In this document: one piece after another, positions 2,828 through 57,442 of the stretch
How the letters are laid out: each line of letters opens with the position of its first letter
Position numbering within the stretch: position 1 is the first letter of the stretch
From: an uncultured Verrucomicrobiae bacterium
GTDB lineage: Bacteria > Verrucomicrobiota > Verrucomicrobiia > Limisphaerales > Palsa-1400
DNA length: 64,000 bases
NCBI GenBank assembly: GCA_963707025.1
Contig: CAVPOM010000004.1
Location: forward strand, 843,735-907,734
Reading direction: 5' to 3'
Made by a program: the position numbers and the translations under genes
The notes under the pieces: model-generated
Seen by the model: the letters and a program-made list of their open reading frames with translations, nothing else
Database searches by the model: none
What the model was told of the DNA's origin: nothing

Positions 2828-3046
2828 GCGCCTGAGCAAACACCGTTTGCCCCCGCGGGGCAAGCTTTAGATGGGCTCAATCTACCACAAACCAGGACAC
2901 TGCCGGACCACGAGGAGCCTTGACTTTTCCGCCGGCCCGCGCAAGGTTGCATGGCATGAGTTCTCCATCTGAGCCAAGGCGAAGCGCCAGCAGGGGCGGC
3001 TGTTTTTGCGGGTGTCGCTCGCTCGCTCCCAGCCACCCTGACCGGC

Positions 3047-3685
3047 ATGAATGACCTGAGGTTCGGGAGCTTGGGGGAAACTTGGATTAATCTGGTCCAG
3101 AGGACCGTCCAGAGCGGGATTTGCGTGGACGGCGAGAGCCTTGAGTTGCTGGAGGTGCAGGTGGCTTTTCCCGCCGGGGCGGAGGGCGATGAGGCGATCC
3201 GGCAGTTTGGCGACCGCGGGATGATTGCCGAGATGGAGAAGGTTTTTTTCGCGCTCGGGGCCAATGCCGAGGGGCACTGTTATGCCAACCTGATGCGAGG
3301 CCCGGACGGCCGGCACGATCTCCAAGACGTCATGGCGCTCCTGCGCGCCGAACCCGCCAGCAAACGGGCGGTGGTAACTTTGTGTGATCCCGGCGGCGGC
3401 AAGGTGCCGTGCATCAATGTCGTGCAATTCCTGGTTCGCGCCGGCGCGCTGCGGACCATTTACTTCGCGCGCGGCCAGGATGCCTTCAAAAAATTTTATG
3501 CCGACGCGCTTTGCCTGGCAAAGATGGCGCGCAGGGTAGGGGAGGGGTTGGGCCTGGCGGAGGGCGCCGTGTCGGGATTCATCGCCTCCAGCCATGTCTA
3601 TCAGAAAGATCTGCCGGCCATCGCCGATTTCCTGGCGCGCGGCCGGCGGTTCCTGCGCAACGGCGAACCGGAAGGAGCCCGCTGA
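3047..3685 (+). CDS. Thymidylate synthase-superfamily paralogue (possible CMP/dCMP 5-hydroxymethylase-like)
   Basis: PASKRAV (SRR-like), catalytic VPC, QFLVR, RGQD in place of RSxD, Asp at the Asn177-equivalent, and the HVY motif. Short (212 aa), archaeal-type length. Confidence 0.85.
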   Translation: MNDLRFGSLGETWINLVQRTVQSGICVDGESLELLEVQVAFPAGAEGDEAIRQFGDRGMIAEMEKVFFALGANAEGHCYANLMRGPDGRHDLQDVMALLRAEPASKRAVVTLCDPGGGKVPCINVVQFLVRAGALRTIYFARGQDAFKKFYADALCLAKMARRVGEGLGLAEGAVSGFIASSHVYQKDLPAIADFLARGRRFLRNGEPEGAR

Positions 3686-5809: not shown

Positions 5810-7168
5810 ATGCTCACACTGGTTACCTCCAATCCCGCCAAGTACGCCCCATTCACCCGGGACCTGGAGCGCTTGCGCCTCACGCTAGAGCCGCCCTCCC
5901 AGTCCCTTCCCGAACTGCAGAGCCTCACTTTCGCCGAAGCCCTGGCCGCAAAGGCGCGTGCCGCCGCCGCCCTGTTTGGCCGGCCCGTGCTCGTAGATGA
6001 CACCGGTTTGGTGTTGGAGGCCTACGCGCCGTTCCCGGGGCCGTTGACCGGGGCCGTCCTCCGCAGCCTCGGCGCCACGGGACTCCGGCGGCTTCTTGCC
6101 GGCACTTCCCACCGGGCGGTGATGGAATGCCACCTCGGTTGTTGGCTCAAGGGCGCTTTGCGGCAGTGGACCGGCGCTGTTTCGGGCCGAATTGACCTTT
6201 CCCGTCCGCAACGCGACCCACGGATGCTCCTTTCCGATCTGTTCATCCCCGATCCATCCGAGGCTGGACCGGCCCCTCGCCGGCGCGCCCAGCCAGGCCA
6301 GGCGGCAAAGCCCGCGCGCGGCCGGCGCCGGGGAGCGGCGGCTGCATTGCTGCAAGACGGCGCGCTGCGGACCGAAGCGCCCGGCCTCCAGGGCGCCGCG
6401 ACCGGACATTCTCCGCTGCCCCACCGCGCGCTCGCCCTCGCCGCCCTGGAAAAAGATATATTCGAACTGCACCTCGAAACCGCTCCTCCGGAAACGGGCG
6501 GTGCGACGGCCTGCGCCGCGCCGACCAGCTATGATTGCCCGTTTTGCGCCGAGTTTGAGGACGACGGCCTGAGCCTGTTCGCCGGCATGATGGGGGATCG
6601 TCTTCCCAGCCGGGTGGTGTATGAAGACGAACATTTCGTGGTCATGCCCCCGTTGGGGGAGTTCATGGAAGGGGGCCTGCTGTTGCTGAGCCGGGAACAT
6701 CTCCCTTCCTTGGCGCACCTCGCGGCCGCGCAGTTCGACCGACTCGAACGCTTGTTGCAGGCGATCCAGCGGGCTTTGGCCAAACGCTGGGGCGCCGCAA
6801 CAGTGGTTTTCGAACACGGCCCCGCTGCCGACTGGAGCAAAGGCGCCTGCTGTGTTGACCACGCGCATCTGAACATCTTCCCGGCCCCGGTTTATGTCCG
6901 CCCGCACCTGGCTGGCCGGATGAGTCTGTCCCTTGGGTCGCTGGCCGGGCTGGCCAAACTCCGGCGCGCCGAATTCGGCTATCTCTTCGTCCAGGAAAAC
7001 GACGGCACGCGCCGCGCCTACGACGGCCGGGATGTCCCCACCCAGTTGGTGCGCCGCATCATCACCGCCCAACTCGGCCTGCCCGAACGGTGGCACTGGC
7101 GCGATTACCCGGGCCGCGACGAATTGCTCGCCACCTACCACGCGCTGAAGGAACAGATCCGGTTATGA
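5810..7168 (+). CDS. Fusion of a Ham1/ITPase-family NTP pyrophosphatase and a HIT-like nucleotide hydrolase/transferase
   Basis: N-terminal TSNPAK, LPELQ, VDDTGL, FPGP, GRI and PHR (SHR-like). C-terminal CPFC, VYEDEHF, FEHG and DHAHLN. Confidence 0.85.
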   Translation: MLTLVTSNPAKYAPFTRDLERLRLTLEPPSQSLPELQSLTFAEALAAKARAAAALFGRPVLVDDTGLVLEAYAPFPGPLTGAVLRSLGATGLRRLLAGTSHRAVMECHLGCWLKGALRQWTGAVSGRIDLSRPQRDPRMLLSDLFIPDPSEAGPAPRRRAQPGQAAKPARGRRRGAAAALLQDGALRTEAPGLQGAATGHSPLPHRALALAALEKDIFELHLETAPPETGGATACAAPTSYDCPFCAEFEDDGLSLFAGMMGDRLPSRVVYEDEHFVVMPPLGEFMEGGLLLLSREHLPSLAHLAAAQFDRLERLLQAIQRALAKRWGAATVVFEHGPAADWSKGACCVDHAHLNIFPAPVYVRPHLAGRMSLSLGSLAGLAKLRRAEFGYLFVQENDGTRRAYDGRDVPTQLVRRIITAQLGLPERWHWRDYPGRDELLATYHALKEQIRL

Positions 7169-7842
7169 GCGCCGGCCAGTCAAGCATTGGCCGCATCCGG
7201 CCAATTTATGCGCGCCGCCGTCTCAAGGCCATCGCCGCCCGCTGGGATGCCCGGGCTGGCGCCTGGGAGCGCGCCCTGGCCGACCCAGCCTGTCCCCTGA
7301 ACGAGGACGGCGCCTACGGCCGGTTCACCCGGGTCGTCCAACGCCTCATCGCGCGGCGGCGGCGATTCTGTGCCAGCCACGGCGTCATAGACGCCGGTTG
7401 CGGGACCGGATTGGTTTTGGCCGAAGTGTTTTCCGCCTTTGCCTGGGGCATCGGCCTGGACATCAGCCCGCGGATGATTCGCCTCGCGCGCGCCAAGCGC
7501 CTGGCCCATACCCGTTTCGTCGTGGGCGACTGCTTCAATCTCCCGTTGCTTTGTCCCAGGGCCGGCGCGGTCCTCTCGCGCGGCGTGCTCCTCTCGCATT
7601 ATGGCCGCGAGCAGGGTCAGGCCCTCCTCAACGCCGCCCGGGCCGCCTTGGTGCCGGGCGGCTTTTTGGCTTTCGATTTCTTGAATGCAGCCGCGCGCGG
7701 CCAACATCGCCACGCCCCGGCAAACAAAACCTGGTTCACCGGCCGGGAAGTCCAGGAGATGGCTCGCCGCGCCGGTTTCTCCACCGTCAGGACCTTGGGC
7801 AAATCAAACCGCCGCGCTCTCGTGTTGCTGGCCGAAACCTGA
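7165..7842 (+). CDS. Class I SAM-dependent methyltransferase
   Basis: VIDAGCGTG, GLDISPRMI, VVGD and LVPGG motifs. ATGA overlap with the upstream gene. Confidence 0.9.
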   Translation: MSAGQSSIGRIRPIYARRRLKAIAARWDARAGAWERALADPACPLNEDGAYGRFTRVVQRLIARRRRFCASHGVIDAGCGTGLVLAEVFSAFAWGIGLDISPRMIRLARAKRLAHTRFVVGDCFNLPLLCPRAGAVLSRGVLLSHYGREQGQALLNAARAALVPGGFLAFDFLNAAARGQHRHAPANKTWFTGREVQEMARRAGFSTVRTLGKSNRRALVLLAET

Positions 7843-7992: not shown

Positions 7993-9129
7993 ATGACGAA
8001 CCTCACTCCGACGCAACGATTTAGAACCAGGAAGTCTCGTGCGGCGGTGCCCGGCCCTGCCATCTGGAAGGTGCCTGACATCATGGCCACCCTTGGGCCG
8101 ACACTGGAAAAGCAGGAAGACTTGCGCCAGGCCATCCAAGCCGGCGTCCGCTGGGTCCGGCTGCCTTGCGGATACCGGCAGCGACCACACTTGGAGAACG
8201 CCCGGACCGCGCGCGCGGCTGCGACGCAAGCCGGCCTGCCCGTCCAATTGCTGCTGGACCTGCCCTCTTCCCGGCCGCGGACCGGGACGATGCAGGACCT
8301 GCAACTGGCCATAGGCGATGCCGTGCTTTTCTGGGATCCCGAGGCCGGCAGCGAGGCGCCCCTCAAAAACGGCGCGTGGCCGGTGCCGCTGCCCGGTCTG
8401 CGGGAGTTGGCGGACAAGCTGGCTGCGAAGCACCGCATGTGGTTTTGCGACGGGCGTCTTAACTTTGTCGTGGATGGACTCCATGACGGGTTTGTCGCAG
8501 CCCATTTAGTTGACGGTACCATCCCGCTCAAGTCTTCCAACGCGCTCTTTTTGCCCGATTGTTCCAGCGGTTTCAGGGCCATTACTCAACTGGACCGTGA
8601 GCTGTTGCGAGAGTTCGCCGCCGCCAAACTGCTTCCCGACTGGGTGGCTCTGTCGCTGATTGCATCGCCTCAGGACGTGCGCGAAGGTCGCGCGGAGGCC
8701 GGCAAATGCCTGGGCGCTGAAGTCCGCGTGATGGCCAAATTCGAGACGGTCGCGGCGGTGGAGTGTGCGGAGGCGATCATCGCCGCCGCGGATGGCCTCA
8801 TGGTGGCCCGGGGCGACCTTGGCCTGGCCGTTGGCTACACCCGCCTGCCGGGCGTGCAAGAGCAGTTGGTGGCGGCCGCGCGGCGGGCTGGCAAACCGGT
8901 GGTTGTAGCCACTCAAATCCTGGAGACCTTCGCCGCAACCGGCCTCCCCCAGCGTCCCGAGCTTTCAGACTTGTCGCTCATCGCCCGCCAGGGGGCCGAT
9001 GCCATCATGCTGGGCAAGGAAACCGTCTTCAGTCCTCGGCCTCTGGAGTGCATCCGCCTGGCGTCGGAGGTCCTGACTTACGAGACCCGGCGTTTCGAGC
9101 AGGTTTATGGCACACAGCGCCCGGTTTGA
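7993..9129 (+). CDS. Divergent pyruvate kinase-like protein lacking the C-terminal domain
   Basis: IMATLGP, AKFET, DGLMVARGDLG, VATQILE, RPELSD and GADAIMLGKET. The RLNFSHG motif is replaced by RLPCGY. Confidence 0.85.
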   Translation: MTNLTPTQRFRTRKSRAAVPGPAIWKVPDIMATLGPTLEKQEDLRQAIQAGVRWVRLPCGYRQRPHLENARTARAAATQAGLPVQLLLDLPSSRPRTGTMQDLQLAIGDAVLFWDPEAGSEAPLKNGAWPVPLPGLRELADKLAAKHRMWFCDGRLNFVVDGLHDGFVAAHLVDGTIPLKSSNALFLPDCSSGFRAITQLDRELLREFAAAKLLPDWVALSLIASPQDVREGRAEAGKCLGAEVRVMAKFETVAAVECAEAIIAAADGLMVARGDLGLAVGYTRLPGVQEQLVAAARRAGKPVVVATQILETFAATGLPQRPELSDLSLIARQGADAIMLGKETVFSPRPLECIRLASEVLTYETRRFEQVYGTQRPV

Positions 9130-9925
9130 GTTGAAATACCTCATCGAGGAACCCCGCGCCGTGGCGGTGGCGGATTTTGTTTCCAGCTATCTTCGGCCTT
9201 CCGAGCACAACGGCTCCGGACCCATCCGCGGGCATCCGGTCATCAGCCTTTACCTGGATTCACCGGATTTCTTTTTTTTCAGGCAGGCCTACCAAGGCAA
9301 CAGAAACCGCATGAAGCTGCGCATCCGTTTCTACGACGACGAATGGCAGCGGCCCGCTTTCCTGGAGGTCAAGCGCCGCGTCAGCGAAGTCATCCTGAAA
9401 GACCGGGCGATGATGACGCGGGAAGGCGTCCGCCAGATCCTCACCCAAGGCTGGCCCGGCTGTCCTTATTGGGCCGACTTCACCCACCTCATCCACGGCC
9501 GGCGGCGGCAGGATGTGAACGAGGATTTCTGGAGGTTCGCCAACACGATGCGCGCCTGCGGGTCCATTTATATCTCCTATTACCGGGAAATCTACGAGGC
9601 GCCCGAGGACGAGGAGCTGCGGGTGACCCTGGACCGCCAAATCCGCGGCAGCCGTTACGACGGCAGCGGCCGGTTGCAGGTTCCCCAGCGCGGCTGGCGT
9701 CCCTTTCTGCCTCCTTACGCAGCGCCGTTCCCCCAGAACGGTGTTATCCTGGAGTTGAAATTCGACAATCAGGCGCCGCGCTGGATGTTTGATCTGGTCA
9801 AAATCTTCAATCTCCAGCGGATTCCCTTCTGCAAATATGTGGCGTGCATGTATGCGCAGGATCTGCAGTGGCGGCGGCGCGTGCTGGCGGAACAGGAGCA
9901 GGATTTGGTATTAACAGGAAACTGA
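9107..9925 (+). CDS. VTC / polyphosphate polymerase domain protein (CYTH-like)
   Basis: RFELKY, SLYLDS, KLRIRFY, FLEVKRR, RVTLDR, ILELKF and KY motifs. Confidence 0.9.
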   Translation: MAHSARFELKYLIEEPRAVAVADFVSSYLRPSEHNGSGPIRGHPVISLYLDSPDFFFFRQAYQGNRNRMKLRIRFYDDEWQRPAFLEVKRRVSEVILKDRAMMTREGVRQILTQGWPGCPYWADFTHLIHGRRRQDVNEDFWRFANTMRACGSIYISYYREIYEAPEDEELRVTLDRQIRGSRYDGSGRLQVPQRGWRPFLPPYAAPFPQNGVILELKFDNQAPRWMFDLVKIFNLQRIPFCKYVACMYAQDLQWRRRVLAEQEQDLVLTGN

Positions 9926-10654: not shown

Positions 10655-13600
10655 CTAGGGATTCAGGATCAGGCGATAGAAGCGATTGGTTGGGGACGGA
10701 GCGGAGGGATCGCAGATAGTAACGACCGGAGAGGCGGCGGTCAGGTTGGTCAGGAACTGCCAGTTGGCCGTGGCGAGGTCCCCGCTGTATAGCACGGTGT
10801 AATTGCGCCCGAGGAGAGCGGTCCAGCTTATCCGGAAGCCTTGGGCGGAGGACGCGGCGCCGTAGAATTGGGGCGCAACGCCCGCCGAGGGAGCAAAGGC
10901 GATGCCGCGATAGAGCTGGTTGACGCCCGCAGTGGCCAACGTGCCCGCCAAGGATGCGGCACCGGTGTCGGTCACGGTGACAATGCGATTGGCGGAGGAT
11001 TCCGCGGTGGTGGCGTAGATGATCGGATGTGGGCCGGTGAAAGCCACGGTCAGGCCGCGCGCGCCAACGTTGGTCAGAGCGATAAACGTGTAGCTGAGCG
11101 TCCAGGCACTGCCGTTCAAGTCCCACCGCTGGATTCCGCCGTTCCCGGCCAGCGTGTCGTCGGCGACGTAGGCCGAGGTGAAATTGGAGTTGAAGGCGAA
11201 GGCAAAAGGGCTGCTGTCCGGCCCGGTGGGAAGGAAGAGGGACGGGGCCGCGGAGCCGACGGGTGTGCCGGGGATTTTCCAGATGCCGGGAGTGGACTTG
11301 CTGGTGCTGAAATAGAGGTTTCCGCCGAGGTCCTGGATAACCATGCTGTTGGCGACGGCGGATTGAACGGTGGCAGGGAGGCTGCCGCCAAAGTAAAATG
11401 TCCCGCTGTTGGCGCCTGCGCCCCAATAGTTGCCCAGGCCGTCGGTGGTGGCAGACCGGAAGTTGTTGGAGCTGTATTGGTTTGTGGTCAGGCCGAGGAT
11501 GGCAAACTGACCGCTGCCATCCAGGGCGCCGATGACGCGGGGCACCGTTGCCGCGGCAGAACCGGCCAGCGAGGAAGAGCTGTTGCTGTAGGCCATATTG
11601 TAGCCCGCGAGCATGAGCAGGCGCCGGTCGGCGGAAAGGGTCAGGCCGCCCTCGGAGGTGGCGCTGCCACTGGCGAGGAAGGCGTTGGACGATTCATCGG
11701 GAATGGCAATGCTGCCGGCCAGCCCGCCATTGGTGTTGAATTGGTCCACGAAAAGGGAGTTGCCGTGGCTGCTGAGGGATTCCGCGCCGTCGCCCACGCG
11801 CACGACGGCCAAATTGCCGGGGGTGAATGGGAGAGGGGAGGAGCTTCCGGCGAAGCTGTTCTGGTTGACCACCGCGCCCCGGTCGTTTTCAAGGATCAGC
11901 GCGGAGTTTCCCTGCGCGCTGAGGAAGCCGGCGAACGGCCCCTGCACAAAAAGGTTCTGGCCGGCGTGCGGACTGGCGGCGCGGGCGCGGAAAGCGTTGA
12001 CGCTGGCCGTGAGATAAAGAGATTTGCCGGCGGGGATGACTGTGCCGGGGCGCATGCGGAACTCAATGGCGCCCGTCAGGCGCCAGTTGGAAACATCCAC
12101 GGCGTAGGAGTTGGTGTTGCCCAGTTGCACGTATTGTTCGGCGGGATTTCCGCTGACAGGAGCGTAGTCGGAGGAGGCAATGAGGACGACGGCGTTCGTC
12201 GGCTGCGCGGCCGGAATGGAATTGCTGATGCTGATGGAAGTGCTGCCGTTGAGCGTGGCGTAAGGACTGGTGTAAAGAAAGGCGCGCCGTCCGGCCAGGA
12301 AATTGGAGATCAGGCGTTCGGCGTCATTCGGGAAATAGCTGAGGTTGGTGTCGCCCCAGGCCGGCCCCCAGACCGCGTAGTCCAGCGCGGTGTCGGACGG
12401 GGAGAGGCCCGGCGGGTTGAGGGTGTTTTCGTATTGACGGATGAGGGGTTCGAGGACCTGCGCGCCCGCCGGCGTCCCGGCGGGCATGAGGATGGTGTCC
12501 ATCAAGGTCCTCAGCCGCCGCAGATACATCTGGCTGAAATCGCCCGAGGCAAAAAACAGGTCGAAAAGGCGGTTGGCGGGTTTGGACTGGATGGGCGCGC
12601 CGGGATAGAAATCAAGGACGTTCGTTGTAAAAATGACGTCGTTGAAATAGTTCGACCCTGAGAATTCGTCCACCCAATCGCGCCCCCACGAAAGGTCAAC
12701 GTCCCACGGGAAAATCGCCCATTCGCCGGTGTTGTCGCTGTCGCAATAGAGATAGAAATTTTTATGGCCGACGTCCTGATCGCTGGTCAGCGCCATGTCG
12801 GCAAAATAACTTGCCGTCTGCGGCAGGTCGAGGTTGTCGTAGGCGTAGGCCACGCGTGTGGCGAGCGCAATGGACTCGTCCAGGTTGGTGATCAGAGCGG
12901 TCAAGTCCGCCGTGCCCGCGGGGTCCGATTGACGCGTTTCCTTGACATTGCCCGAAGCGCTGCTCATTTCATTATACATTTTGTAAAGCGCGCCGTTGTC
13001 ATCGCGCCCGATGCGGTCCAAAAACAACCCGTCCCCATATTCGACCATGTCTTCCAGCCCCCAAAAGGAGCCGTTGAGATGGATGCGGATGGGAAAGGAG
13101 AAAAAGCCGACGCCGCCCGACTGGGCGATGGCGGCGTAGGTGAGGGTGGTGCGGAGGCGCGCCTTGTCGCTGTAGTCGCTCATGAAAATGACCTTCTGCT
13201 CGCGCGTGCCGTTCGGCGCGTAAAGAAAGTCGTGGTCCTTGGGAAAAACCAGGTCGTGGCTTTTCTTGGGCCAGCCGGTGGAGGTCTGCCCATGCACATG
13301 AATGGCCAGGTTGTCATACAGCTCACCCAGGTAGAACATCGAGGCCTGCGTGCCGGTTTGATTGTCGGCGGCGGACGGATTTTGAATGAACAAATAAGCC
13401 ACCGGCAACTGCGAGTGAATGGCAGGATCGGCCACCACCGTTCCATAATACTGCTGCGATTCGGCCGGATCCGGGAAAATCGGCCAGCGCGAAGAGTTGC
13501 CGGCGGTGTCTGAAGCCGTGACATAATAGCGAATCAGTTGACCCGCCGCCGCCACCCCGGCGGGAATTTTGCCCGTCCAGGTCCCGTCTCCGGCGGCGGC

Positions 13601-15538
13601 ATCGCCATTGGTGCCGGCATCGTTCATGGGCGCGGTGGTTTCGGCGTCAAACATGACGCAATAATGCAAGGTGACGTTGGAAATGGCGCTGAAGCCGGGC
13701 GCCACTTGCGCGGTGACGGTGAGGGCATCGGTCGTTTGCGGAGGGTTGGGAGTGTGGCTGGCGCCGGTCATGATCGGGCCGAGATCGTTGCTGCTCGTGC
13801 CGTTGGGGCCGCCGGGAGTCGGCCCGGAGAAATAGCGATATGCGGCGAGGGAATTGGTGACGGTTTGGCCGAGCAATTGCGCCTGCAGCAGGAAATCGCT
13901 GTTGGTTGCGGCGAGGTTCAGGCCCTGCACGGCCAGCAGGTTGTTGCCCGCCTGCAAATACGGCGGCGCCGCGCTTAGGTCGAATTCCTGCCATTGCACC
14001 GCCCGCGGGTTCAGGTTCAGTTGCGTGGCGGTGGAATTCCAGGCCAGCGTGGCGGGGGCGCCGGCGGAGGCGATTTGCTGGCCGTTGAGGAAGGCGACGA
14101 AGCCGGCGTTGTAGCGCACCAGCAGGCTCAGTGTGCTGAAGGCCGGCGGGTCGGCCACGCTGAAAGGGATGCGCACGCAAGCGCTGGCGTTGGAACCATA
14201 CATCAGGGCGCGGACATCGGTGTTGATGTAATTGCTGTAGTTGCCCTCGGCGACGTTGGTCGCCAGGAAACCGGTGATCTCGTTGCTGGCCAGGGCGCGG
14301 TACCAGACCGCAACCTCGTCAATGCCACCCTTGAAATAATTCCCCGTGGGATCAAACACCCCGTCGCCGCCGATGTTGAAATTGAACAGCGATTCGCCGA
14401 AATTCGCCGCCGAAATTGCAGTGCTCCCCACATTGGTGGCGTCGAGAAAAAGCGACAGCCGCCCGTTGCCGCCCACGGCCGTGACATAGTGCCACTGGTT
14501 GGTTGGGTATGGGTAGCTCGCGGACACCGAGCCGGCTGGCGTCCAGATCTGGATGGTGGGATAGGAACTGAATCCAAATTCCATCGTGTCGTTTTGGCCG
14601 AACAAACCGGCCCGGTTGGTTTGCTGGGTCGTCGCCGGATTGATCCAACCGGCGATGGTGAAGGCGGGCAAATCATTGACCAGTTCATACGGTCCATTGA
14701 CAGCGGCGCTGACCCCGTCAAAGACAGGCGCGCAGTTGGCCGCTTCCAATGTCGGACATTTCGGCGGACGCGGCCCCGCGCCGCCCAGCACGATATGGCC
14801 CAAGTAACCCGCCGCGTCCGTGACGCCGTCCGTACCGGAATTGACCGCCTGGACGCCACTGGTTTCGTTCAGGCGCCAGTAGGCGGCGGGTTGGGAAGCG
14901 AGTACTTTGGCGGCGAACGATTCTTCTCCCGGGTTAAAAAGGCCCGTTTCGTATCCAATCCCATTGGTTCCCGCCCGCCAGGTCGAATCATCGAATCCGG
15001 TCTGCTGCCAGGCTCCATCCACGGAGGAGTTGGTGGGAATGATGTAAGACATCGTGGCGTTGGTGACCACCAGCGGGGTCGTGATAAAGGCCATGACCAG
15101 GCCGTAGGAGACATCTGGAAACTGCTGGGGATAGGAGGGCGAGAACTCGGTGGCGATGGAGAGGTCGGGACGGGACAGGGCCAGGTACTCCCCTGCGGGG
15201 TTGAGTTTGAAGTTGGTGTGGAGCGGGGCGCCGGGGACGCGGCGGTTCTTGCCGGAGGCAAAAACGACCATAAATGCGCCGGGAGGGAGGTTGGTGGAGG
15301 GGAAAAGCCATTTTTCCGGGTTGCCCGAGCTGTCGCTCAACGCCCAATTGCGCAGATTAACATTTGTCATGGACGCGTTTTGCAGTTCGATCCAGTCCGA
15401 GTAATCGCCATCCTCGTCGGCCAGGGTGTGGGTGTTGCTCGCCATGAATTCCGTGAGGCGCACCTGCGCCAATCCGGTGGCGCATCCCAGAAACAAAAGC
15501 GCCCCGAGAACTGGCCGGAGATTAGCAAGCTTGGTCAT
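10655..15538 (-). CDS. Large secreted protein with lamin-tail domains, a LamG/ConA-like domain and a CotH kinase-like domain
   Basis: Signal peptide; LTEFMASN...DYSDWIEL (lamin tail); AYWRLNE...GIDEVAVWYRAL (LamG); HKNFYLY...PWDVDLSWG (CotH); C-terminal FYRL module. Confidence 0.85.
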   Translation of the reverse strand: MTKLANLRPVLGALLFLGCATGLAQVRLTEFMASNTHTLADEDGDYSDWIELQNASMTNVNLRNWALSDSSGNPEKWLFPSTNLPPGAFMVVFASGKNRRVPGAPLHTNFKLNPAGEYLALSRPDLSIATEFSPSYPQQFPDVSYGLVMAFITTPLVVTNATMSYIIPTNSSVDGAWQQTGFDDSTWRAGTNGIGYETGLFNPGEESFAAKVLASQPAAYWRLNETSGVQAVNSGTDGVTDAAGYLGHIVLGGAGPRPPKCPTLEAANCAPVFDGVSAAVNGPYELVNDLPAFTIAGWINPATTQQTNRAGLFGQNDTMEFGFSSYPTIQIWTPAGSVSASYPYPTNQWHYVTAVGGNGRLSLFLDATNVGSTAISAANFGESLFNFNIGGDGVFDPTGNYFKGGIDEVAVWYRALASNEITGFLATNVAEGNYSNYINTDVRALMYGSNASACVRIPFSVADPPAFSTLSLLVRYNAGFVAFLNGQQIASAGAPATLAWNSTATQLNLNPRAVQWQEFDLSAAPPYLQAGNNLLAVQGLNLAATNSDFLLQAQLLGQTVTNSLAAYRYFSGPTPGGPNGTSSNDLGPIMTGASHTPNPPQTTDALTVTAQVAPGFSAISNVTLHYCVMFDAETTAPMNDAGTNGDAAAGDGTWTGKIPAGVAAAGQLIRYYVTASDTAGNSSRWPIFPDPAESQQYYGTVVADPAIHSQLPVAYLFIQNPSAADNQTGTQASMFYLGELYDNLAIHVHGQTSTGWPKKSHDLVFPKDHDFLYAPNGTREQKVIFMSDYSDKARLRTTLTYAAIAQSGGVGFFSFPIRIHLNGSFWGLEDMVEYGDGLFLDRIGRDDNGALYKMYNEMSSASGNVKETRQSDPAGTADLTALITNLDESIALATRVAYAYDNLDLPQTASYFADMALTSDQDVGHKNFYLYCDSDNTGEWAIFPWDVDLSWGRDWVDEFSGSNYFNDVIFTTNVLDFYPGAPIQSKPANRLFDLFFASGDFSQMYLRRLRTLMDTILMPAGTPAGAQVLEPLIRQYENTLNPPGLSPSDTALDYAVWGPAWGDTNLSYFPNDAERLISNFLAGRRAFLYTSPYATLNGSTSISISNSIPAAQPTNAVVLIASSDYAPVSGNPAEQYVQLGNTNSYAVDVSNWRLTGAIEFRMRPGTVIPAGKSLYLTASVNAFRARAASPHAGQNLFVQGPFAGFLSAQGNSALILENDRGAVVNQNSFAGSSSPLPFTPGNLAVVRVGDGAESLSSHGNSLFVDQFNTNGGLAGSIAIPDESSNAFLASGSATSEGGLTLSADRRLLMLAGYNMAYSNSSSSLAGSAAATVPRVIGALDGSGQFAILGLTTNQYSSNNFRSATTDGLGNYWGAGANSGTFYFGGSLPATVQSAVANSMVIQDLGGNLYFSTSKSTPGIWKIPGTPVGSAAPSLFLPTGPDSSPFAFAFNSNFTSAYVADDTLAGNGGIQRWDLNGSAWTLSYTFIALTNVGARGLTVAFTGPHPIIYATTAESSANRIVTVTDTGAASLAGTLATAGVNQLYRGIAFAPSAGVAPQFYGAASSAQGFRISWTALLGRNYTVLYSGDLATANWQFLTNLTAASPVVTICDPSAPSPTNRFYRLILNP

Positions 15539-15682
15539 ACCTCGTCCTTCTTACGTAATCATCAGTATATCAGAAGAGTTAATGGGTTGCAATGGGGATT
15601 CTCAAGCAAGGCGGATGCGGGAGTTTAGATTCGGAGTTTTGGCTTGCAAAACTCCGCAAACTGGCTATGCTCAACTGTTGCC

Positions 15683-18600
15683 ATGAAGGTTTCTCAAAGT
15701 TCACTGCGTTTTTCGGCGCAACTCCCCGCAAGCAATGGCCTTTGGCGCGGGGTTGGCCTGCGCTGGGGCGCTCCCGCGCTGCTGGCTTGGCTGTTCCTTT
15801 TTGCGGGTCTTCCTCCAGCCAGAGCCGGTCTGCCGCCCGGCTGGAGCGACACGGACATTGGGACGCCCGCGGACGCCGGTTCGGCGTCTGACAACAATGG
15901 CGGGTGGACCGTCTCCGGCGGCGGGGCGGACATCTGGGGAACGGCCGACCAATGCAACTTCGCCAGCCAAGGTTTCAATTGTGACGGCGCCATCGTTGCC
16001 CTGGTCACCAGCGTGCCGAACACCGATCCAAGCTCCGGCTGGTCCAAAGCAGGCGTGATGTTGCGCAACGACACCACGGCCGGGGCGGTCAATGCTTTTA
16101 TGACCGCCTCGGCGGGCCAGGGGGTCTCTTTTCAATTTCGCGACACGGCGGGCGGCGCGTCTGTCACCACGAAGGTCGGCGGAGTCAACCCGCCGGTCTG
16201 GGTCAAAGTGGTTCGTTCGAGCGACCAATTCAGCGGTTATTATAGTGTTGACGGGAGCAATTGGACCCAAGTGGGCGGCGCCGCCACCATCGAGATGGCC
16301 GGTCCCGCCCTGGCCGGGCTGGCCGTGACGGCCCACAACAACGGCGCGCTCAACACCTCCACCTTTACCAACGTCAGCCTGACGCCGCCCGCCTTCGGCA
16401 TCTACCGGGAGCTTTGGACCAACCTCAGCTCCAGCGTGGGCAACACTCTGGCCGCGCTGACGAACACAACCGACAACCCCAACTGGCCCAACGACCCTGC
16501 GCCGTCCTACACCCATGTTTTCACTAATTTTGAAACCGAAATCAATACCGGCATGAATTATTTCGGCCAGCGTCTGCGGACATTTGTCGTGCCGCCCGCC
16601 AGCGGTCTTTACACGTTTTGGATCGCCAGCGACGATAATTCCCTGCTTTACCTGAGCACCAGCGAGAACCCCGCCGGCATGGTGGCGATTGCGTCCAACA
16701 CGGCCTGGACGCCTTCGGAGGACTGGACCGAGTACCCCAGCCTGCAATCGGCGCTCATCAGCCTGCAAGGGGGCTGCCGTTATTACCTGGAAGCGCAGAT
16801 GCAGCAAGGGGCGGCGGGGAAAACCTCTCCGTGCGCTGGCAGTTGCCCAATGGGGCATTTGAACAGCCCATGGCGGCCGTAAGCGCAGCCGGCACGCTGC
16901 TGATCCCGTGCAACGGGGTGAACACGACCCCGGGCATTTTTGCCCAATCCAGCAGCGTGACGGTGGTGGAGAATCTCAATGCGGTTTTTTCGGTGCTGGT
17001 CACCAATCAGGCCCCGGTGACTTACCAATGGTTCACCAACGGCAGCAAGCTGGCCGGAGCCACCCTGCCGGTGGACACGCTGAGCAACGCCAGTTTCACG
17101 CTGAACAACGGCCAGATTTACACCTGTGTCGTCAGCAACAGCGCCGGTTCCATCACCAGCGCTCCCATCGCCCTGATCGTGCTGCACGACACCGTCCCGC
17201 CGGCGGTGGCTGAGGTTTTCAACCTCGGACCGGCCAGCGTGGAGATCGTTTTCTCCAAACCGGTCGCGGTCACCGACGCCACCAACGCGGCCAATTATGC
17301 GTTTACCAACGGGACCGCCATTACCGGCGCGGCGCTCGCCGCGAATAATTACAGCGTGACGCTGACCAGCGCGCCCCTGGTCTATGGGAGCAATTATGTC
17401 ATTGTCATAAATAATATTCACGACCGGGCCAGCACGCCCAATGTCATTGCCACCAACACCCTGGCTGGATTCACGGCCTTGCCTTTTGCGCCGCAGGACA
17501 TCGGCAGCCCGCCCATTGCTTCCACCGCCACCTACACCACCAACGGAGAGACCATCCAGAGCGCCGGCAATTACATCGGCGGCACCAGCGATCAATGCAA
17601 CTTGGAATACCAACTCCAGACCGGCAATTTTGACGTCTCCGTCTGCCTGGCCGGCCTGGGTCTGTCGGACCTTTGGGCCAAGGCCGGCTTGATGGCGCGC
17701 GCCAGTCTGGATGCGGGCAGCCCGTTCGCCGCCGCGCTGGCCACGCCCGGCATGAACGGGGATTTTTTCGCCGATCGCACCGCCACCAACGGCCAGGCGG
17801 CGGCCTCGGGGAGTTTTCCGGCCAATTATCCCAACACCTGGCTGCGGCTCAAGCGGGTGGGCAACGTGTTCACCGGCTTTGCCAGTTACGACGGACCAGA
17901 CTGGACGCAATTGGGCAGCGCGACGATCGTCATGCCCAGCCAGATTTACCTCGGCCTGGCCGTGGCCAGCCACAACACCAACCAACTGACCACGGCGCAG
18001 TTTCTGCGATTATGAAACCACGCCTGCCGACGCGGTGGTGGCCACGACCGTCAATCCGCACGAACCGCCGGGACCGTCCAGCCGCAAGACCGCCGATTGT
18101 CATTTCCGAGATCATGTGGAAGCCCGCCCCGCGCAGCGACGGCAACAACATCGGAGTTTCTGGAACTTTACAATTCCAATCCCTGTTTCCAGGACATCAG
18201 CGGCTACCAAGTCACCTGCGCGGACATGAATTACACCTTCCCGCCGAACACACTGATCCCCGGCGGCGGCTTTCTCGTCATCGCCGCTTCGCCGCCAGGC
18301 ATCGCAAATGTTTATGGCGATCACCAACGTCCTGGGCCCCTACACCGGCAGCCTCAAGAAATCCGAGACGCTCCAATTGCTGGACGAACAGGGAGCAGTG
18401 TCTTGCTGACCGTGCCTTATTCCGATGTCTACCCGTGGCCGGTGGCGGCCGATGGCACCGGGCATTCGCTTGTCCTGGCCAATCCGACTTACGGCGAAGG
18501 CGATCCGCGCGCCTGGGACATCAGCGACATCGTGGGCGGCTCGCCGGGCCAGATGGATTCGTTCCGTCCCAGCCCGCTGCGCAACGTGGTCATCAACGAG

Positions 18601-21600
18601 ATCCTGGCGCACTCGGAAAACCCGGCCGTGCCGCAATTTATCGAACTCTACAATCACAGCACCAACAGCGTGGACGTCTCGGGCTGCATTCTGACCGATG
18701 ATCCGGCGACCAACAAATTCGTCATTCCCGCGGGCACGGTGATCGGCCCGGCCGGTTTTGTTTCCTTCACGCAATCGCAATTCGGCTTCACGCTCAACGG
18801 CGCGGGCGAAACGCTTTACTTCATCAAGCCCGACGGCAGCCGCATCTTGGACGCCGTGCAATTCGGGGCGCAGGCCGACGGCGTTTCCTATGGCCGCTGG
18901 CCGGATGGCGCGAATGATTTTTACGCCTTCACCACTAACACGCCCGGCGCGCACAACAGCGCCAATTCTGATCGGCGACATGGTCATCAACGAATTGATG
19001 TATGACCCGATCAGCGGCAACGACGACGATCAATACATCGAACTCTACAACAAGGGCACCAACACGGTGAATCTGTCCGGCTGGCAGTTCACGGCCGGCG
19101 TCACTTTCACTTTTCCACCCAATGTTCATGCTGGCCTCCGAACGGCTATCTGGTCGTGGCGCGCAACCTGACCAATCTGCTCGCCAAATATACCAATCTG
19201 AACGCCGGCAACACCGTGGGCAATTACTGCGGCAAAGCTGTCGCACAACGGCGAGCGGGTGGCCTTGGCCCATGCCGCGAGACGCTATTATGGCACCAAC
19301 ACCATCTACGTGGTAGAAGACGAGGTGACCTACGGCACCGGCGGACGCTGGGGCCAATGGTCCTCCGGCGGCGGCAGCAGCCTGGAACTGATTGATCCCC
19401 ACGCCAACCACCGCCTGGCCGCCAACTGGGCGGACAGCGACGAGACGCAAAAATCGTCAGTGGGTGGACATCGAAACCACCGGCGTGCTGGACAACGGCG
19501 CCAATTACGATGCCGGCGATTGATTACGCCCAGATCGGCCTGCTGGACGTGGGCGAATGTCTGGTGGACAACATCGAAGTGGATTACAACGGCAAGCAAT
19601 TATGTTTCCAACGCCGCCTTTGAAAGCGGCCTGGGTTGACCAACTGGTCGCTCCAAGGCTGCATGGTGCGTTCCAGCCTGGAAAACACCGGCTATCAAAG
19701 CAGCTATTCCCTGCACATCCGCTGCAGCGACCGCATTTGGACCGGCGACAATTCCTGCCAGGTGGCCCTGAACGCCAACACCACTGGCACGCGGCCAGAC
19801 GGCGACGCTGCGCTTCAAGGCGCGCTGGCTGCACGGCTGGCCGGAAGCGCTGCTCCGTTTGAACGGCAACTGGCTCGAAGCCACCGGCGCCCATGCCCGT
19901 GCCCGCCAACCTCGGCACGCCCGGGCGTGCCCAACAGCCGATCCGTGACCAATGCCGGGCCGGCCATTTACAAGGTCACCCACAATCCCGCCGTGCCGGC
20001 CGCCTAGCCAGGCGGTGGTGGTGACGGCGCAGGTGCATGATCCGGACGGCGTGCAAAAGCCTGACGCTTTATTACCGCATCGATCCGGCGACCAGCTTAC
20101 ACGGCCGTGCCGATGAAGGACGACGGCACGGGCGGCGACGCCATCGCCGGGCGACGGCGTTTTCAGCGCGACCATTCCCGGACAGGCTGCCAATCAAATC
20201 GTCGCCTTTTACATTGCCGCCACCGACAGCCGGGGCGCGGCAACGCGCTTTCCGGCCTTGCGTCCCAGTGACAATGAACCGGTGCGCGAATGCGTGGTGA
20301 TGTTCGGCGACGGCAATCCCGGCGGCAGTTTTGGCGTGTATCATTTGTGGCTCACCCAGACCAACGTGACCCGCTGGGCCAACTTGTCCGATTTGAGCAA
20401 CGAAGGCAACGATTGCACCTTCGTCAACGGCAACCGCGTCATCTACAACATGCAGGGCCGGTTTGCCGGCAGCCCGTATCACCAGGGCTTTGACACCCCC
20501 GCCGGCAATCTGTGCCATTACAAATGGGAATTTACCGACGACGACAAGTTTCTGGGCGCGACGGCTTTCAACAAGATCCATCAGCCGGGCAACGGACCGG
20601 GCGACGACGCCAGCCTCCAGCGCGAGCAGATGGCCAACACTTTTCTGCGCGCCCTGGGCGTGCCGTGGCTCAACCGCCGCTATGTGGCGGTCTATGTCAA
20701 CGGCAACCGCCGCGGCACGCTGATGGAAGACGCCCAGGTGCCCGGACAGCGATGTGGTCAAAGAACACTTCCCCAACGACGACGGACGGCTTCCTTTACA
20801 AAATGCAGCCGTGGTTTGAGATTCGGCTCCGTTCCCGTCGGGCAACACCATCGGCTTCAGCAATCAATCCTGGTGCAACCTGATGCCCTACACCACCACC
20901 GGCGGGGTGAAAAAGCCGGCGCGCTATCGCTACAATTTTGAGATCCGCCGCACGCCCGATTCCGACAACGACTTTACCAACGTCTTCTCCCTGGTGGACG
21001 CCGCCAGCTCCTATGGCACGCCCAATTACGTGGCCAACATGGAAAACCTGGCCGACATGGAGAACTGGATGCGGGTCTTTGCCGCCAACCACGCGGCGGG
21101 CAATTGGGATTCGTTTGGCGCGCAAAACGCCCAGAATCTTTACGGTTACATCGGCGCGCTGGGCACGAAATATGCCTTGTTGATGTGGGATTTCAACATC
21201 GTCATCGGCAACAGCGGTTCCTGGGGCCCGGGCCAGAATCTGTTCAATGTGAACGGTGAAGACCCCAACACCGCAGAATATTTACAACAATCCCACCTTC
21301 CTGCGCATGTATTGGCGCGCCTTGCAGGAACTGGTCAACGGCCCGCTCAATGTCGCCAATAGCGGACCGTTGCTCGATGCCAAATACAACGCCTTCACCG
21401 CCAACGGCCTCAGTGTCGAAAACCCCGGCACGAACATCAAACCCTGGCTTTCCCAGGCGCAGACCAGCATCGCCTCGCAACTGGCCGCGGTCAACGCCAC
21501 CAGTTTCCAGGTCAACCCAGCCGTGACCGTCAGCAACGACCTCGCCTACGTCACCGGGGGGGCTCCGGTGAACGTGGCCGCCGTCTGGATCAACGGCGTG

Positions 21601-53926: not shown

Positions 53927-54949
53927 ATGACCTCGGTCGTTTTATCAACCCACACCGCCGCGCTCTTCGCCGAGGCGGTGGAACGGGCCGCCGCGCTGCT
54001 GCGCGCCGGGCAGTTGGTCGCGCTGCCCACCGAAACCGTCTATGGCCTGGCCGCCAATGCCTGGGACGCCGCCGCCGTCGCCCGCATTTATGAGGTCAAA
54101 GGCCGGCCCGCGCGCAATCCCATCATCGTTCACGTCGCCAGTTTGGAACTGGCGCGGGACTGTGTTGCCGGGTGGCCGCCTGTGGCGGATAAACTGGCCA
54201 AGGCGTTCTGGCCCGGCCCGCTTACCCTGGTTTTGCCCCGTTCGCCGCGCATCCCGGATAGCGTCACCGCCGGCGGTCCGACCGTGGGCGTGCGCTGGCC
54301 CTCGCATCCTTTCATCCAGGCGGTCATCCGCGCCTGTGGTTTTCCCCTCGCCGCCCCCAGCGCCAATCCCGCCAATCAAGTTTCCCCCACCCAGGCCGCG
54401 CATGTGCGCAAGGCCTTTGACGGCAAAATTCCCCTCATCGTGGATGGCGGCCCGTCGCAAGTGGGCTTGGAGTCCACCGTGCTGGACCTCGCCGCCGCGC
54501 CGCCGCGCCTGTTGCGTCCGGGCATGATCCATGCCGAGTCCTTGCTGGCGGTCATGGGAGAAGCGGAGTTGCGCCTGGCCGCGCCCGATTGGCCGGCGGG
54601 CGCAGAAACCATCCTGCGCAGCCCGGGAATGCTGCCCAAACACTATTCCCCCAAAGCGAAATTGTTGATCCTCGCCTGGCGCGACCAGGCCGATCTGTCC
54701 TCGCAACTCCAGCCGCTGCCATTTCGCCCAGAAGAAACCTGCATCATCGCCTACAGCCGGATCCCGTTGTCCGGTAGTTTTGGCAGGGTGGCCGTGCTCC
54801 CCCACGACGCCGCAGCCTTCGCCCGCGCCCTCTACGCCGAACTCCATCAATGCGACGAGTCCGGCGCGGCCCTCATCGTCGTGGAAGCCCCGCCCCCGCG
54901 CGAGGCCTGGCGCGCCATCGCCGACCGCCTCTCCCGCGCCGCTCAATAA
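53927..54949 (+). CDS. sua5: L-threonylcarbamoyladenylate synthase (Sua5 type)
   Basis: PTETVYGL, KGRPARNPIIVH, FWPGPLT, AAPSAN and the SPGM..HYSP linker. Confidence 0.95.
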   Translation: MTSVVLSTHTAALFAEAVERAAALLRAGQLVALPTETVYGLAANAWDAAAVARIYEVKGRPARNPIIVHVASLELARDCVAGWPPVADKLAKAFWPGPLTLVLPRSPRIPDSVTAGGPTVGVRWPSHPFIQAVIRACGFPLAAPSANPANQVSPTQAAHVRKAFDGKIPLIVDGGPSQVGLESTVLDLAAAPPRLLRPGMIHAESLLAVMGEAELRLAAPDWPAGAETILRSPGMLPKHYSPKAKLLILAWRDQADLSSQLQPLPFRPEETCIIAYSRIPLSGSFGRVAVLPHDAAAFARALYAELHQCDESGAALIVVEAPPPREAWRAIADRLSRAAQ

Positions 54950-54953
54950 TTTC

Positions 54954-54985
54954 CTAATCATAATCTTAATCTTAATCCTAATCCT
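54954..54985. repeat. Hexamer tandem repeat (TAATCN)n
   Basis: cctaatcataatcttaatcttaatcctaatcc immediately after sua5. Confidence 0.6.
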
Positions 54986-55076: not shown

Positions 55077-56594
55077 ATGAAACCATCCGGTATTTTATGG
55101 GGGTTGCTGTGCTGCGCCGCCGCCGCCCAGGCGCAAACGAACAAAACTCAATTGCTGACTCTGGAACAAGCCATCCAGATGGCCATCGAGCACAACCTCA
55201 ATCTGAAAATCCAGCGTTACATACCGGAGCTCGATCAATTTACCCTGGGCGCTGTTTACGGCACGGCCTACGAACCGGCCTTCAACAGCACCTATAAAGG
55301 CGGTCACACCGACGCTCCGGGCCAGCTTATCAATGGCATCACGGTTCCAAGTCTGGACACTGATTATCAAGATTTCCAGTTTGGCATCGGCGGCGCCAAC
55401 GGCGGCAACGCGCTGACGCCCTGGGGCCTGCAATACAGTTTGACCAGCACCATGGACAGGAATGATTATCAAACCTTCACCAGCAACGGCCTGCCCAGGG
55501 CTCCGTTCGCGCAGGACGCCACCTCCGCCAGCCTCAATCTGCAGCAACCCTTGTTAAAAAATTTTTGGATAGACAGCAACCGGGCCACCATTCTGATCGC
55601 CAAGAAAACCATGCAATACGATGAATTCGGCTTTTACCTTGCCGTGATGACCAACATCAGCTCCACCGAGCAGGCTTATTATGAATTGAATTATGCCTTT
55701 GAAAATGTCCGGGTGCAGGAAGACGCGGTTCGCCTGGCGGAACAACTGGTGTCGGAAAATAAACGGAGAGTGCAGGCCGGCGTCCTCACCGACCTGGACG
55801 TGGCGCAATCCCAATCGCAACTGGCGACCAGCCAGGCGGCCCTGCTGGCGGCGCAGCAACTGGTCATCCAGGACGAAAACAATTTGAAAGCGCTCATCAC
55901 CGACAAGTACCGGGATTTGTACGACGTGAAGCTCATTCCCGCGGAAAAATTGCTGGCGCTGCCCGAAATGTTCGACCTGGAAGGAAGCTGGCAAACCGCC
56001 ATGACCAGGCGCCCCGACCTGTTGCAGGCCAAAGTGGCCGTGGAACGGCTGGATGTCAGCCGGCGGTTCCAGAAAAACCAGCTTTTCCCCGAACTGGATC
56101 TGACCGGCAGCTATGGCCGCACCGGATTGAATGGAAGCCTGGGCAGTTCTTTGGGTGAAATTCCAGGCAACAATTTCCCCAGTTATTCCTACGGCGCGAT
56201 CCTGACCGTTCCCCTCGGCAATCAGGCCGCGCGCAACAATTACAAGGCGGCCAAGGCTTCCAAAGAACAAGCCGAGGCCGTCTATCAAATGGTGGAGCAG
56301 AATATGTTGATTCAAATCCAGAACACCATCGAGAAGGCCAAAAGCGACTTCCAGCAAACCAAAGCCACGCGCGACGCCCGCGATTACGCCGACCAGGCCC
56401 TCCAGGCCGAGCAAAAAAAGTTGCAAGTTGGCACCAGCACCTCGTTTATTGTCCTGCAACTGCAAAGCAATTTGACCGCCGCCCGCTCCGCGGAAATCCG
56501 CGCCCTGGCCGATTACAATGAAGACCTGGCCCAACTGGCCCAATTCGAAGGGACCATCCTGGAAAGACACCATCTGACCGTGAAGATCTATTGA
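55077..56594 (+). CDS. TolC-family outer membrane protein
   Basis: Signal peptide, [24 protein letters not shown] and the two-fold OEP repeat. Confidence 0.9.
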
Positions 56595-56608
56595 CGGGGG
56601 TTGAACTT

Positions 56609-57442
56609 GTGAAGCAATACCTCGACCTTTTGCAAAACATCCTCGATCATGGCGCCATGCGAGGCGACCGGACGGGAACCGGGACACGGAGCATCTTCGG
56701 GGCGCAATTGCGCTTTGCCTTGTCGCAGGGATTCCCGCTGGTGACGACCCGGAAGGTCTTCTTCAAAGGCGTTATCCACGAACTTCTCTGGTTTCTCGCC
56801 GGCGACACCAACATCAAATATCTGACGGACCATCATGTTCACATTTGGGATGCCTGGGCGGATGAAAAAGGAGACTTGGGTCCCGTCTATGGCGCGCAAT
56901 GGCGGGCCTGGGAAGCGCCGGACGGGAGGAAAATAGACCAAATAAGTCAGCTCATCCACCAAATCCGGACCAAGCCGGAATCACGGCGGCATCTTGTGAG
57001 CGCCTGGAATCCCGCGGTGCTCCCGAACGAAGGAAGAAGCCCACAGGATAATGTCCGGGCGGGATGCGCCGCCTTGGCCTCCTGCCACGCCCTCTTTCAA
57101 TTCTACGTTGCCGAGGGGCGGCTGTCGTGCCAACTCTACCAACGCTCGGTTGACTGCCCGGTTGGCATGTGTTTCAACGTGCCGCAATACTCGTTGTTGA
57201 CACACCTGGTCGCACAGCAGTGCGATCTGGAGCCCGGCGACTTCGTCTGGACCGGCGGCGACTGCCACATTTACCTCAACCAGATTGAAGGCGTCCGGGA
57301 GCAACTCACGCGGGAACCTCGGCCGCTGCCGAAGCTGATCATCAAACGCAAACCCGCCTCCATCTTCGAATACCAGTTCGAGGATTTTGAAATCGCCGGC
57401 TACGACCCGCATCCACCGATCAAGTATCCCGTGGCGGTGTGA
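56609..57442 (+). CDS. thyA: Thymidylate synthase (canonical)
   Basis: DRTGTGT, FPLVTT, ELLWFL, LGPVYG, SRR, SCH, YQRSVD...FN and DCHIY. Confidence 0.97.

Follow-up and report, generated by a model that had tools for sequence, protein, structure and literature searches.

A predicted cytosine-type thymidylate synthase-fold enzyme encoded in a conserved operon and inherited together with export genes

The stretch of DNA analysed here (64,000 nucleotides; hereinafter, the window) encodes, in addition to a canonical thymidylate synthase, a short second protein of the thymidylate synthase (TS) fold (212 aa; 3047..3685, + strand) that is predicted to act on a cytosine nucleotide and whose gene heads a conserved operon. 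The preferred reading, to which a probability of about 0.55 is attached, is that this TS-like enzyme modifies C5 of CMP and that the product, once converted to a modified cytidine triphosphate, probably supplies an envelope machine made of VTC, DUF4956, HlyD and TolC proteins. This reading joins predicted catalytic steps to residues, a fold, a gene order, gene fusions and a pattern of co-inheritance that were read directly. In the literature searched, which for the most part does not include subscription journals, neither the TS-like subfamily nor the operon is described. The operon offers a compact, directly expressible route to a predicted cytidine analogue that includes a cobalamin radical SAM step, and many important antiviral and antimicrobial agents belong to the class of modified cytidines.

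Active site, fold and substrate of the TS-like protein

The TS-like gene and the canonical thyA (56591..57442, + strand), which lies outside the system and serves as an internal control, are the only two PF00303 matches in the genome, with scores of 27-28.4 and 386 bits, respectively. Translation of positions 3404-3601 (+), within the 212-aa open reading frame 3047-3685, runs from VPC to HVY, both of which the earlier note had described as kept. The catalytic Cys (C122, codon 3410-3412) ends the motif K119-V-P-C122 (3401..3412, + strand), with Lys at the product-determining position that is occupied by Leu143 in the E. coli enzyme and by Asp145 in T4. This motif is followed by R142-G-Q-D145-x3-K149-x3-D153 (3470..3505, + strand; the codons for R142, G143, Q144 and D145 start at 3470, 3473, 3476 and 3479, and D153 is encoded by 3503-3505), in which Gly, Lys and Asp replace Ser167, Gly173 and Asn177, respectively, and by the sugar-binding motif H183-V-Y185 (3593..3601, + strand; H183 at 3593 and Y185 at 3599). 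In the canonical thyA, the pattern RSVD-x7-N starts at 57143 and has the same +11 spacing; the comparison of RGQD...D with RSVD...N made in the earlier note is thus read in both translations. Among the best 120 of 381 homologues (62-100% identity, query counted), C122, R142, Q144, D145, K149, D153, H183 and Y185 are invariant (120/120 each), whereas G143, K119 and K106 (3362..3364, + strand; according to the alignments, the counterpart of MilA Lys133 and E. coli Arg126, a ribose-preference site) are present in 118, 114 and 117 of the 120, respectively. Because the motif is kept across these close homologues, it is neither a product of chance nor a sequencing error, and it is under selection.

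The best sequence match in the PDB is MilA (phmmer E-value 2e-8, the next match being at 8e-4), and a profile search of the PDB also places MilA first (7e-22), followed by AfhB (1e-19). With the AlphaFold2 model of the TS-like protein (pLDDT 93) as the query, Foldseek ranks MilA first, and VIA puts AfhB first (Z 20.8, rmsd 2.2, 191 aligned residues) and MilA second (Z 19.3, rmsd 2.9, 197 aligned), with ThyA proteins at 18.1 and below. Both AfhB and MilA, the leading structural matches of the model, are of the cytosine type. The look-alikes in the ESM Atlas carry generic TS and HIT/CwfJ labels only. In a quick tree of 127 of the 162 rows (fragments and short matches were dropped, and MilA was represented by stand-ins), the query falls into a clade of 32 rows (SH-aLRT 99), and the BcmA-like proteins form a clade of their own (97). 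These sequence comparisons suggest that the TS-like protein represents a separate subfamily of cytosine-type TS rather than an orthologue of MilA.

The features common to the TS-like protein and the CMP 5-hydroxymethylases MilA/BcmA (mildiomycin and bacimethrin; PDB 5jnh and 5b6d) are the fold, the catalytic Cys, Asp at 177, Lys at 126, a small residue at 167 and the His/Tyr sugar pair. Cys155, Asp186, His216 and Tyr218 of these enzymes are matched by C122, D153, H183 and Y185 (120/120 each), and the ribose pair Lys133 and Ala176 by K106 and G143, with Gly instead of Ala and with less uniformity in the distant clade. However, the TS-like protein is shorter (212 aa vs about 330) and lacks the C-terminal helical domain, Asp152 and Gly182 are both replaced by Lys, the PRG Arg loop is deleted, and Glu68 is unplaced.

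In an alignment with E. coli ThyA, T4 gp42 and RB69 gp48, G143 falls on Ser167/Ser169/Ser184 and D153 on Asn177/Asp179/Asp194, respectively, which bears out the earlier assignment of an Asp to the Asn177 position; the phmmer alignment to MilA sets RGQD...D on RAND...D. As described in the MilA study (PMC5175136), Asp186 accompanies cytosine substrates, MilA has Ala176 and Lys133 where deoxy-preferring enzymes have Ser and Arg, a double mutant reverses the preference, and dCMP is accepted only 5-fold less well than CMP; the statement of the earlier note that MilA lacks the Ser of RSxD is also correct, Ala176 being found there. Given that Asp186, Ala176 and Lys133 align with D153, G143 and K106, all three published specificity sites are matched, and K106 adds to G143 a second ribose-type site that was absent from the earlier note. 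Among the 26 distant members of the clade, D153 and D145 are invariant (26/26 each), position 143 is occupied by Gly, Ala and Ser in 19, 5 and 2 members, and position 106 by Lys, Arg and Asn in 13, 12 and 1; in the 59 sister rows, Lys at 106 is mostly paired with Ser at 143. K106 is therefore a weak ribose marker, since the distant members so often have Arg and since Lys co-occurs with Ser167 in most sister rows. With an Asp at the 177 position and a separate canonical thyA in the genome, the TS-like enzyme very probably acts on a cytosine substrate; a preference for ribose, that is, for CMP over dCMP, is somewhat favoured.

The database names (thymidylate synthase), a PF00303 score just above the cut-off, and the presence of Asn at the 177 position in 21 of the 59 sister-group rows (Asp in the other 38) would speak for a redundant or degenerate, dUMP-specific thymidylate synthase. 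Such an identity is highly improbable, given that Asn177, Ser167, Arg126, Leu143, Arg21 and Gly173 of ThyA, all six of which are kept by the canonical thyA in the window, correspond to D153, G143, K106, K119, a gap and K149 in the TS-like protein, which also has no C-terminal tail. The NCBIfam equivalog models for ThyA give 21.7 bits against a cut-off of 108.35 (TIGR03284) and 44.2 against 174.55 (TIGR03283), and a full thyA is present in the genome. The predicted cytosine-type identity would correct the misannotation of hundreds of database proteins as thymidylate synthase.

Product signatures and the folate pocket

According to PMC6400193, hydroxymethylases are marked by an Asp three residues before the Cys together with Ser-x-Tyr (in T4, D145N is inactive), TS carries at the former position a Leu that goes with methylation, a conserved acid, Glu58, activates the folate, and the PABA ring is contacted in E. 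coli by Ile79, Gly173 and Phe176; according to PMC13326640, D169N marks every tested hydroxylase. An alignment of E. coli ThyA, T4 gp42, RB69 gp48 and two BcmA/MilA-like proteins assigns to the TS-like protein, by E. coli numbering, Lys at 143, Gln at 168, Asp at 169, Lys at 173 and Ala at 176, and places a His (H77; 26/26 in the distant clade) at the position of T4 Ser94, with the Tyr of Ser-x-Tyr kept. The Arg21 loop is deleted, leaving a gap in the alignment, as is part of the folate-binding segment, and about 10-20 residues are missing from the Glu58-Trp83 region. K149, the Lys at the Gly173 position, is invariant in both sets of homologues (120/120 close, 26/26 distant); all 17 MilA-side sequences have Gly there. 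The Glu58 position (Glu68 in MilA) lies in the deleted, poorly aligned stretch and is placed neither by sequence nor by profile alignment; E62, present in 98/120 close and 21/26 distant members, is a candidate for the catalytic Glu.

The TS-like subfamily fits none of the three published product signatures. Where MilA/BcmA have an acidic residue three before the catalytic Cys, the TS-like protein has K119, and where they have Gly at 173 and a C-terminal helical domain, it has the invariant K149 and ends at residue 212. T4 gp42 is similar in having Asp at 177 and in lacking the C-terminal tail of ThyA, but it combines the deoxy-type Ser169/Arg123 with the water-activating pair Asp145/Ser94, and of the T4-type set Asp179/Ser169/Arg123/Asp145/Ser94-x-Tyr96, only the Asp and the Tyr are kept in the TS-like protein. 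The flavin-dependent dCMP 5-hydroxylases AfhB and RB69 gp48 (PDB 9iqc and 9iqu) share with it the compact size, Asp 177, Gln 168 and a non-Gly residue at 173; however, they have Asn 169, Ser 167, Arg 126 and Glu 143 where the TS-like protein has Asp, Gly, Lys and Lys, and the D169N signature is replaced by D145 in 120/120 close and 26/26 distant members.

With Lys in place of Gly173, no Arg21 loop and Glu58 unplaced, the use of CH2-THF is an assumption, and the product appears less sure than the 5-hydroxymethyl- or 5-methyl-(d)CMP initially proposed: the CMP or dCMP substrate of that proposal agrees with the cytosine-type residues, whereas the residues that signal either product are absent (K119, and no Leu). 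A hydroxymethyl group from CH2-THF is the single most likely guess for the C5 substituent but, given that the folate pocket is rebuilt, its chances fall somewhat short of even. The same cytosine substrate could instead undergo folate-independent chemistry, in which a Cys122-CMP adduct would meet another partner (flavin-activated oxygen, as in AfhB, formaldehyde, or a SAM- or cobalamin-derived methyl) or a C5 group would be removed. Compatible with such chemistry are the Gly173 to Lys replacement throughout the close and distant sets, the loss of the Arg21 loop and of part of the folate segment, the lack of an invariant Glu58, the higher VIA rank of the flavin-using dCMP hydroxylase AfhB (Z 20.8 vs 19.3 for MilA), and the Gln 168 and the absence of Gly173 in its relative RB69 gp48. 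Nevertheless, a folate-independent reaction is rather unlikely, considering that D145 retains the Asp169 that is changed to Asn in every hydroxylase tested (D169N; PMC13326640), that E62 might act as the catalytic acid, that H77 or K119 might serve to activate water, and that MilA scores above AfhB by sequence. Few reactions are known for the TS fold, and a single cofactor switch, from folate to flavin, was described only recently; since the residue set fits no published product signature, a single assay might bring an unfamiliar reaction to light.

The operon and the predicted pathway

The gene neighborhood was compared across 89 loci (9 genomes and the best 80 of 145 metagenome matches, including some near-duplicates), with each gene counted over the loci that have room downstream. 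The TS-like gene heads a conserved operon in which the gene order is kept down to 52% identity. The second gene, the start of which overlaps the TS-like stop, encodes a B12-binding radical SAM enzyme (460 aa, PF02310 and PF04055; 3685..5067, + strand; 61/62 loci), followed by a thymidylate-kinase-like NMP kinase (PF02223; 5064..5801, + strand; 49/50 loci); a Ham1 pyrophosphatase fused to a CwfJ/Cwf19-like HIT domain with the motifs FEHG...DHAHLN (5810..7168, + strand; 42/43 loci); a class I SAM methyltransferase whose subtype also occurs in fusions with distant TS-like homologues (7165..7842, + strand; 36/37 loci); a divergent pyruvate-kinase-like protein with the barrel domain and an uncertain start codon (PF00224; 7945..9129, + strand; 24/33 loci); a VTC-domain (polyphosphate-polymerase-like) protein (PF09359, 114.6 bits; 9107..9925, + strand; 19/31 loci); and a DUF4956 membrane protein (PF16316; 9935..10642, + strand; 23/31 loci). 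The first five open reading frames overlap or nearly abut, and a gap of about 100 bases precedes the pyruvate-kinase-like gene. Four loci that keep DUF4956 lack VTC (L045, L047, L078 and L083). A large LTD/LamG/CotH-kinase protein with a signal-peptide-like N-terminus (10655..15538, - strand) is loosely associated with the operon (4/8 TS-positive vs 0/23 other family genomes).

Several minor features of the neighborhood can be added. The radical SAM gene is absent from L045 and L048, where the kinase is kept, and L045 retains the other genes except VTC; the two loci offer a natural contrast from which the radical SAM step might be assigned. DprA, upstream of the TS-like gene, is a local neighbor only (0/62 loci). 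DUF3616 was considered as a core gene and rejected: it adjoins the operon in 7/28 long loci (L029, L030, L031, L038, L066, L076 and L079, in each case upstream and with a signal-peptide-like N-terminus) but occurs in 0/31 family genomes. The non-coding leader (2900-3049) matches no Rfam family, and a promoter/terminator scan gave no result. In about 15 close loci, 70-145 bases of this leader show 66-86% conservation, and it is probably a promoter or regulatory sequence.

Both the kinase and the Ham1 protein of the operon are extra to housekeeping copies elsewhere in the genome, where the stronger PF02223 matches are found, and PF00224 has no match in this 88%-complete genome other than the pyruvate-kinase-like protein. 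In the operon Ham1 domain, MLLSDLF replaces FGYDPIF, the loop that sets purine specificity. The HIT domain folds like Cwf19/CwfJ (TM 0.66), with FEHG and HAHxN invariant. At G000:C7:160746-161977, this genome also encodes two tandem thymidylate-kinase-like domains; the housekeeping copy is on contig C9.

A search of 1.84 billion representatives for distant homologues gave 540 matches, and fusions were read among the 150 listed; among these, TS-like domains are fused to Ham1 (at least 5), methyltransferase (at least 5), NUDIX (at least 1) and SLOG (at least 2) domains. The fused methyltransferase of P0205 is similar to the operon methyltransferase (E-value 2e-28), as is one fused Ham1 to the operon Ham1 (3e-20). 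These fusions occur in a broad, so far uncharacterised family of short TS-fold proteins with the pattern RSQD-x3-K-x3-D/N (P0142, P0146, P0149, P0152, P0153; P0176, P0205, P0211, P0229, P0259; P0163; P0181, P0255). One long homologue, P0284, was considered as a TS-radical SAM fusion and discarded, as it looks like a frameshift join.

Under the preferred reading, Cys122 would add to C6, Asp153 would select cytosine, and Gly143 and Lys106 would make room for ribose, the TS-like enzyme thereby placing a group at C5 of CMP. Tailoring of this product would fall to the SAM methyltransferase and the B12 radical SAM enzyme, and its phosphorylation to the triphosphate to the NMP kinase and the pyruvate-kinase-like enzyme, which agrees with the broad NDP tolerance of pyruvate kinases; Ham1-HIT would supply the monophosphate or remove surplus or side products. 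What results would either leave the cell or be consumed at the membrane by VTC, a type of domain that builds polyphosphate from NTP. The thymidylate-kinase-like family is mostly deoxy-specific, which speaks against this reading. A complex prediction for the TS-like dimer with the methyltransferase gave a score of 0.22 (mark 0.32).

The combination of a pyrophosphatase, a TS-fold enzyme and a kinase is common to the operon and the T4 gp42 pathway, and Ham1, TS, the TMK-like kinase and an NDP kinase parallel T4 gp56/gp42/gp1. The TS-like protein could accordingly be a dCMP-specific enzyme that yields modified dCTP for DNA, as in T4-style genome modification or defence; the operon kinase matches the thymidylate and deoxynucleoside kinase families, and MilA itself takes dCMP at only a 5-fold disadvantage (PMC5175136). 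This alternative is improbable: neither Ser167 nor Arg126, which the deoxy-preferring enzymes share, is retained, the conserved neighboring ORF clusters include no recurring polymerase, glycosyltransferase or nuclease, and the co-inherited genes are export genes. Furthermore, the TS-like gene is chromosomal whereas T4 gp42 is phage-borne, a scan of viral contigs found no relative of the TS-like protein among 127 pattern matches, and tblastn against phages and plasmids gave distant matches only (22-31% identity among the matches listed).

Co-inheritance with export genes

The TS-like gene is present in 8 of the 31 family genomes, in 5 of 10 genera. Counting related genomes and loci, which are not independent, an HlyD orthologue is found in 8/8 TS-positive and 0/23 other family genomes, and the same holds for TolC orthologues of at least 54% identity, the others having paralogues of at most 45% or none. 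The low-scoring pyruvate-kinase type, DUF4956 and the methyltransferase are each present in 7/8 TS-positive and 0/23 other family genomes; in the eighth TS-positive genome, which is 85% complete, the TS-like gene lies on a 3.3-kb contig. Within 18 of the 28 loci of at least 12 kb, there is a TolC-like or HlyD-like gene, located upstream or downstream, in either orientation and in several arrangements. In G422, the pyruvate-kinase-like gene is found with DUF4956 and HlyD on another contig than the TS-like gene. In the genome analysed here, HlyD and TolC are in the middle of contig C5, away from the operon, yet kept. A link that survives rearrangement argues for function, although short of proof, and functional coupling of the TS operon to the export module is considered reasonably probable. 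Given that the operon is inherited with predicted membrane export genes, the modified nucleotide or a derivative is probably exported. On C5, the TolC-like and HlyD-like genes form a convergent pair (G000:C5:305229-307869) beside a flanking gene that is also seen in locus L012, where TolC-like and HlyD-like genes lie about 4-7 kb from the TS-like gene; the cluster has apparently been split in the genome analysed here.

Beyond the family, no TS orthologue is present in 400 other genomes of the phylum (the best match there has 47 bits vs 289), whereas DUF4956 is found in 57 of these 400, all without a TS orthologue. The 12 DUF4956 regions that were read contain HlyD in 11 cases, VTC in 11 and the pyruvate-kinase-like gene in none. 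Hence VTC-DUF4956-HlyD is an older, independent module, and because it exists without the TS-like gene, the co-inheritance may reflect one island gained or lost as a whole. The four loci without VTC and the two without the radical SAM gene likewise speak against a simple reading of the link. Within the family, this module is tied to the TS operon, and the pyruvate-kinase-like gene appears only with the TS operon. An accessory set in which VTC, DUF4956 and a CotH kinase gene occur together, as they do in the window, is described in 10.1101/768473, where it adjoins Gram-positive pel clusters and has no assigned function; here, HlyD and TolC accompany VTC-DUF4956, and the set is inherited along with an operon for nucleotide modification and a dedicated pyruvate-kinase-like gene. 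The tie to VTC-DUF4956-HlyD-TolC is a handle on a common bacterial module without an assigned function.

The patchy spread of the operon (8/31 family genomes, 0/400 others in the phylum) and the loss of VTC from some loci would also suit a cassette for a cytidine analogue with antiviral or antimicrobial action, in the manner of viperin or of the nucleoside antibiotics. The steps up to the triphosphate and Ham1-HIT would be unchanged, but Ham1-HIT would provide self-protection, HlyD/TolC would be an efflux system or a passenger, and VTC would not consume the nucleotide. In PADLOC, the radical SAM enzyme and the kinase (36 and 47 bits) match PDC-M51A/B and VakA (E-values 7e-10, 5e-13 and 2e-7), but these matches are weak and likely generic, and the TS-like, Ham1-HIT and pyruvate-kinase-like proteins have no PADLOC match; the main text of 10.1101/2024.01.29.577857 does not name the PDC-M51 system. 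In one bcm-type cluster a SAM methyltransferase adjoins the BcmA-like gene, as in the TS-like operon; however, the operon methyltransferase resembles a BcmC-like protein over 38 residues only. The partner of MilA/BcmA is the MilB/BcmB glycosidase, whereas those of the TS-like protein are kinases, radical SAM, Ham1-HIT and export genes, and no base-releasing gene of the MilB/BcmB type recurs in the loci. An analogue-producing cassette is accordingly considered unlikely, if worth keeping in view.

The preferred reading, a modified cytidine triphosphate that feeds the envelope machine, has a more specific and speculative form, which is doubtful: the operon might maintain an orthogonal nucleotide currency, in which a modified CTP, made by a possibly folate-free enzyme and recharged from the diphosphate by the pyruvate-kinase-like enzyme, would serve as phosphate donor or primer for the VTC polymerase, with the VTC product passing through a DUF4956-HlyD-TolC channel and on to surface CotH kinases. 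If true, the modified nucleotide would have a role outside both nucleic acids and antibiosis, and the widespread VTC-DUF4956-HlyD module would gain a function.

Among the other loci collected, L124:5737-10760 (plasmid of Burkholderia sp. FERM BP-3421), taken as a reference, is by annotation a bacimethrin-type cluster with NUDIX, nucleoside deoxyribosyltransferase, BcmA-like TS, methyltransferase, thiD and bcmE genes. In L120:4346-9051 (Parabacteroides distasonis, NZ_OY725790.1), a cassette that immediately precedes dihydrofolate reductase encodes a distant relative of the HIT domain, an ATP-binding protein and an FAD-dependent thymidylate synthase of 540 aa. In the window, the gene directly upstream of the canonical thyA encodes a paralogous TolC-like protein (54780-56594, + strand; about 40% identity to the TolC of the system), an arrangement that resembles loci in which the TolC of the system is directly upstream of the TS-like gene. 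A second very large gene of the PA14/Ig/LTD/CotH type (15644-24183, + strand) is broken into about ten open stretches in three frames, which is attributed to frameshifts or assembly errors; in family genomes, intact CotH open reading frames span 2600-3100 aa.
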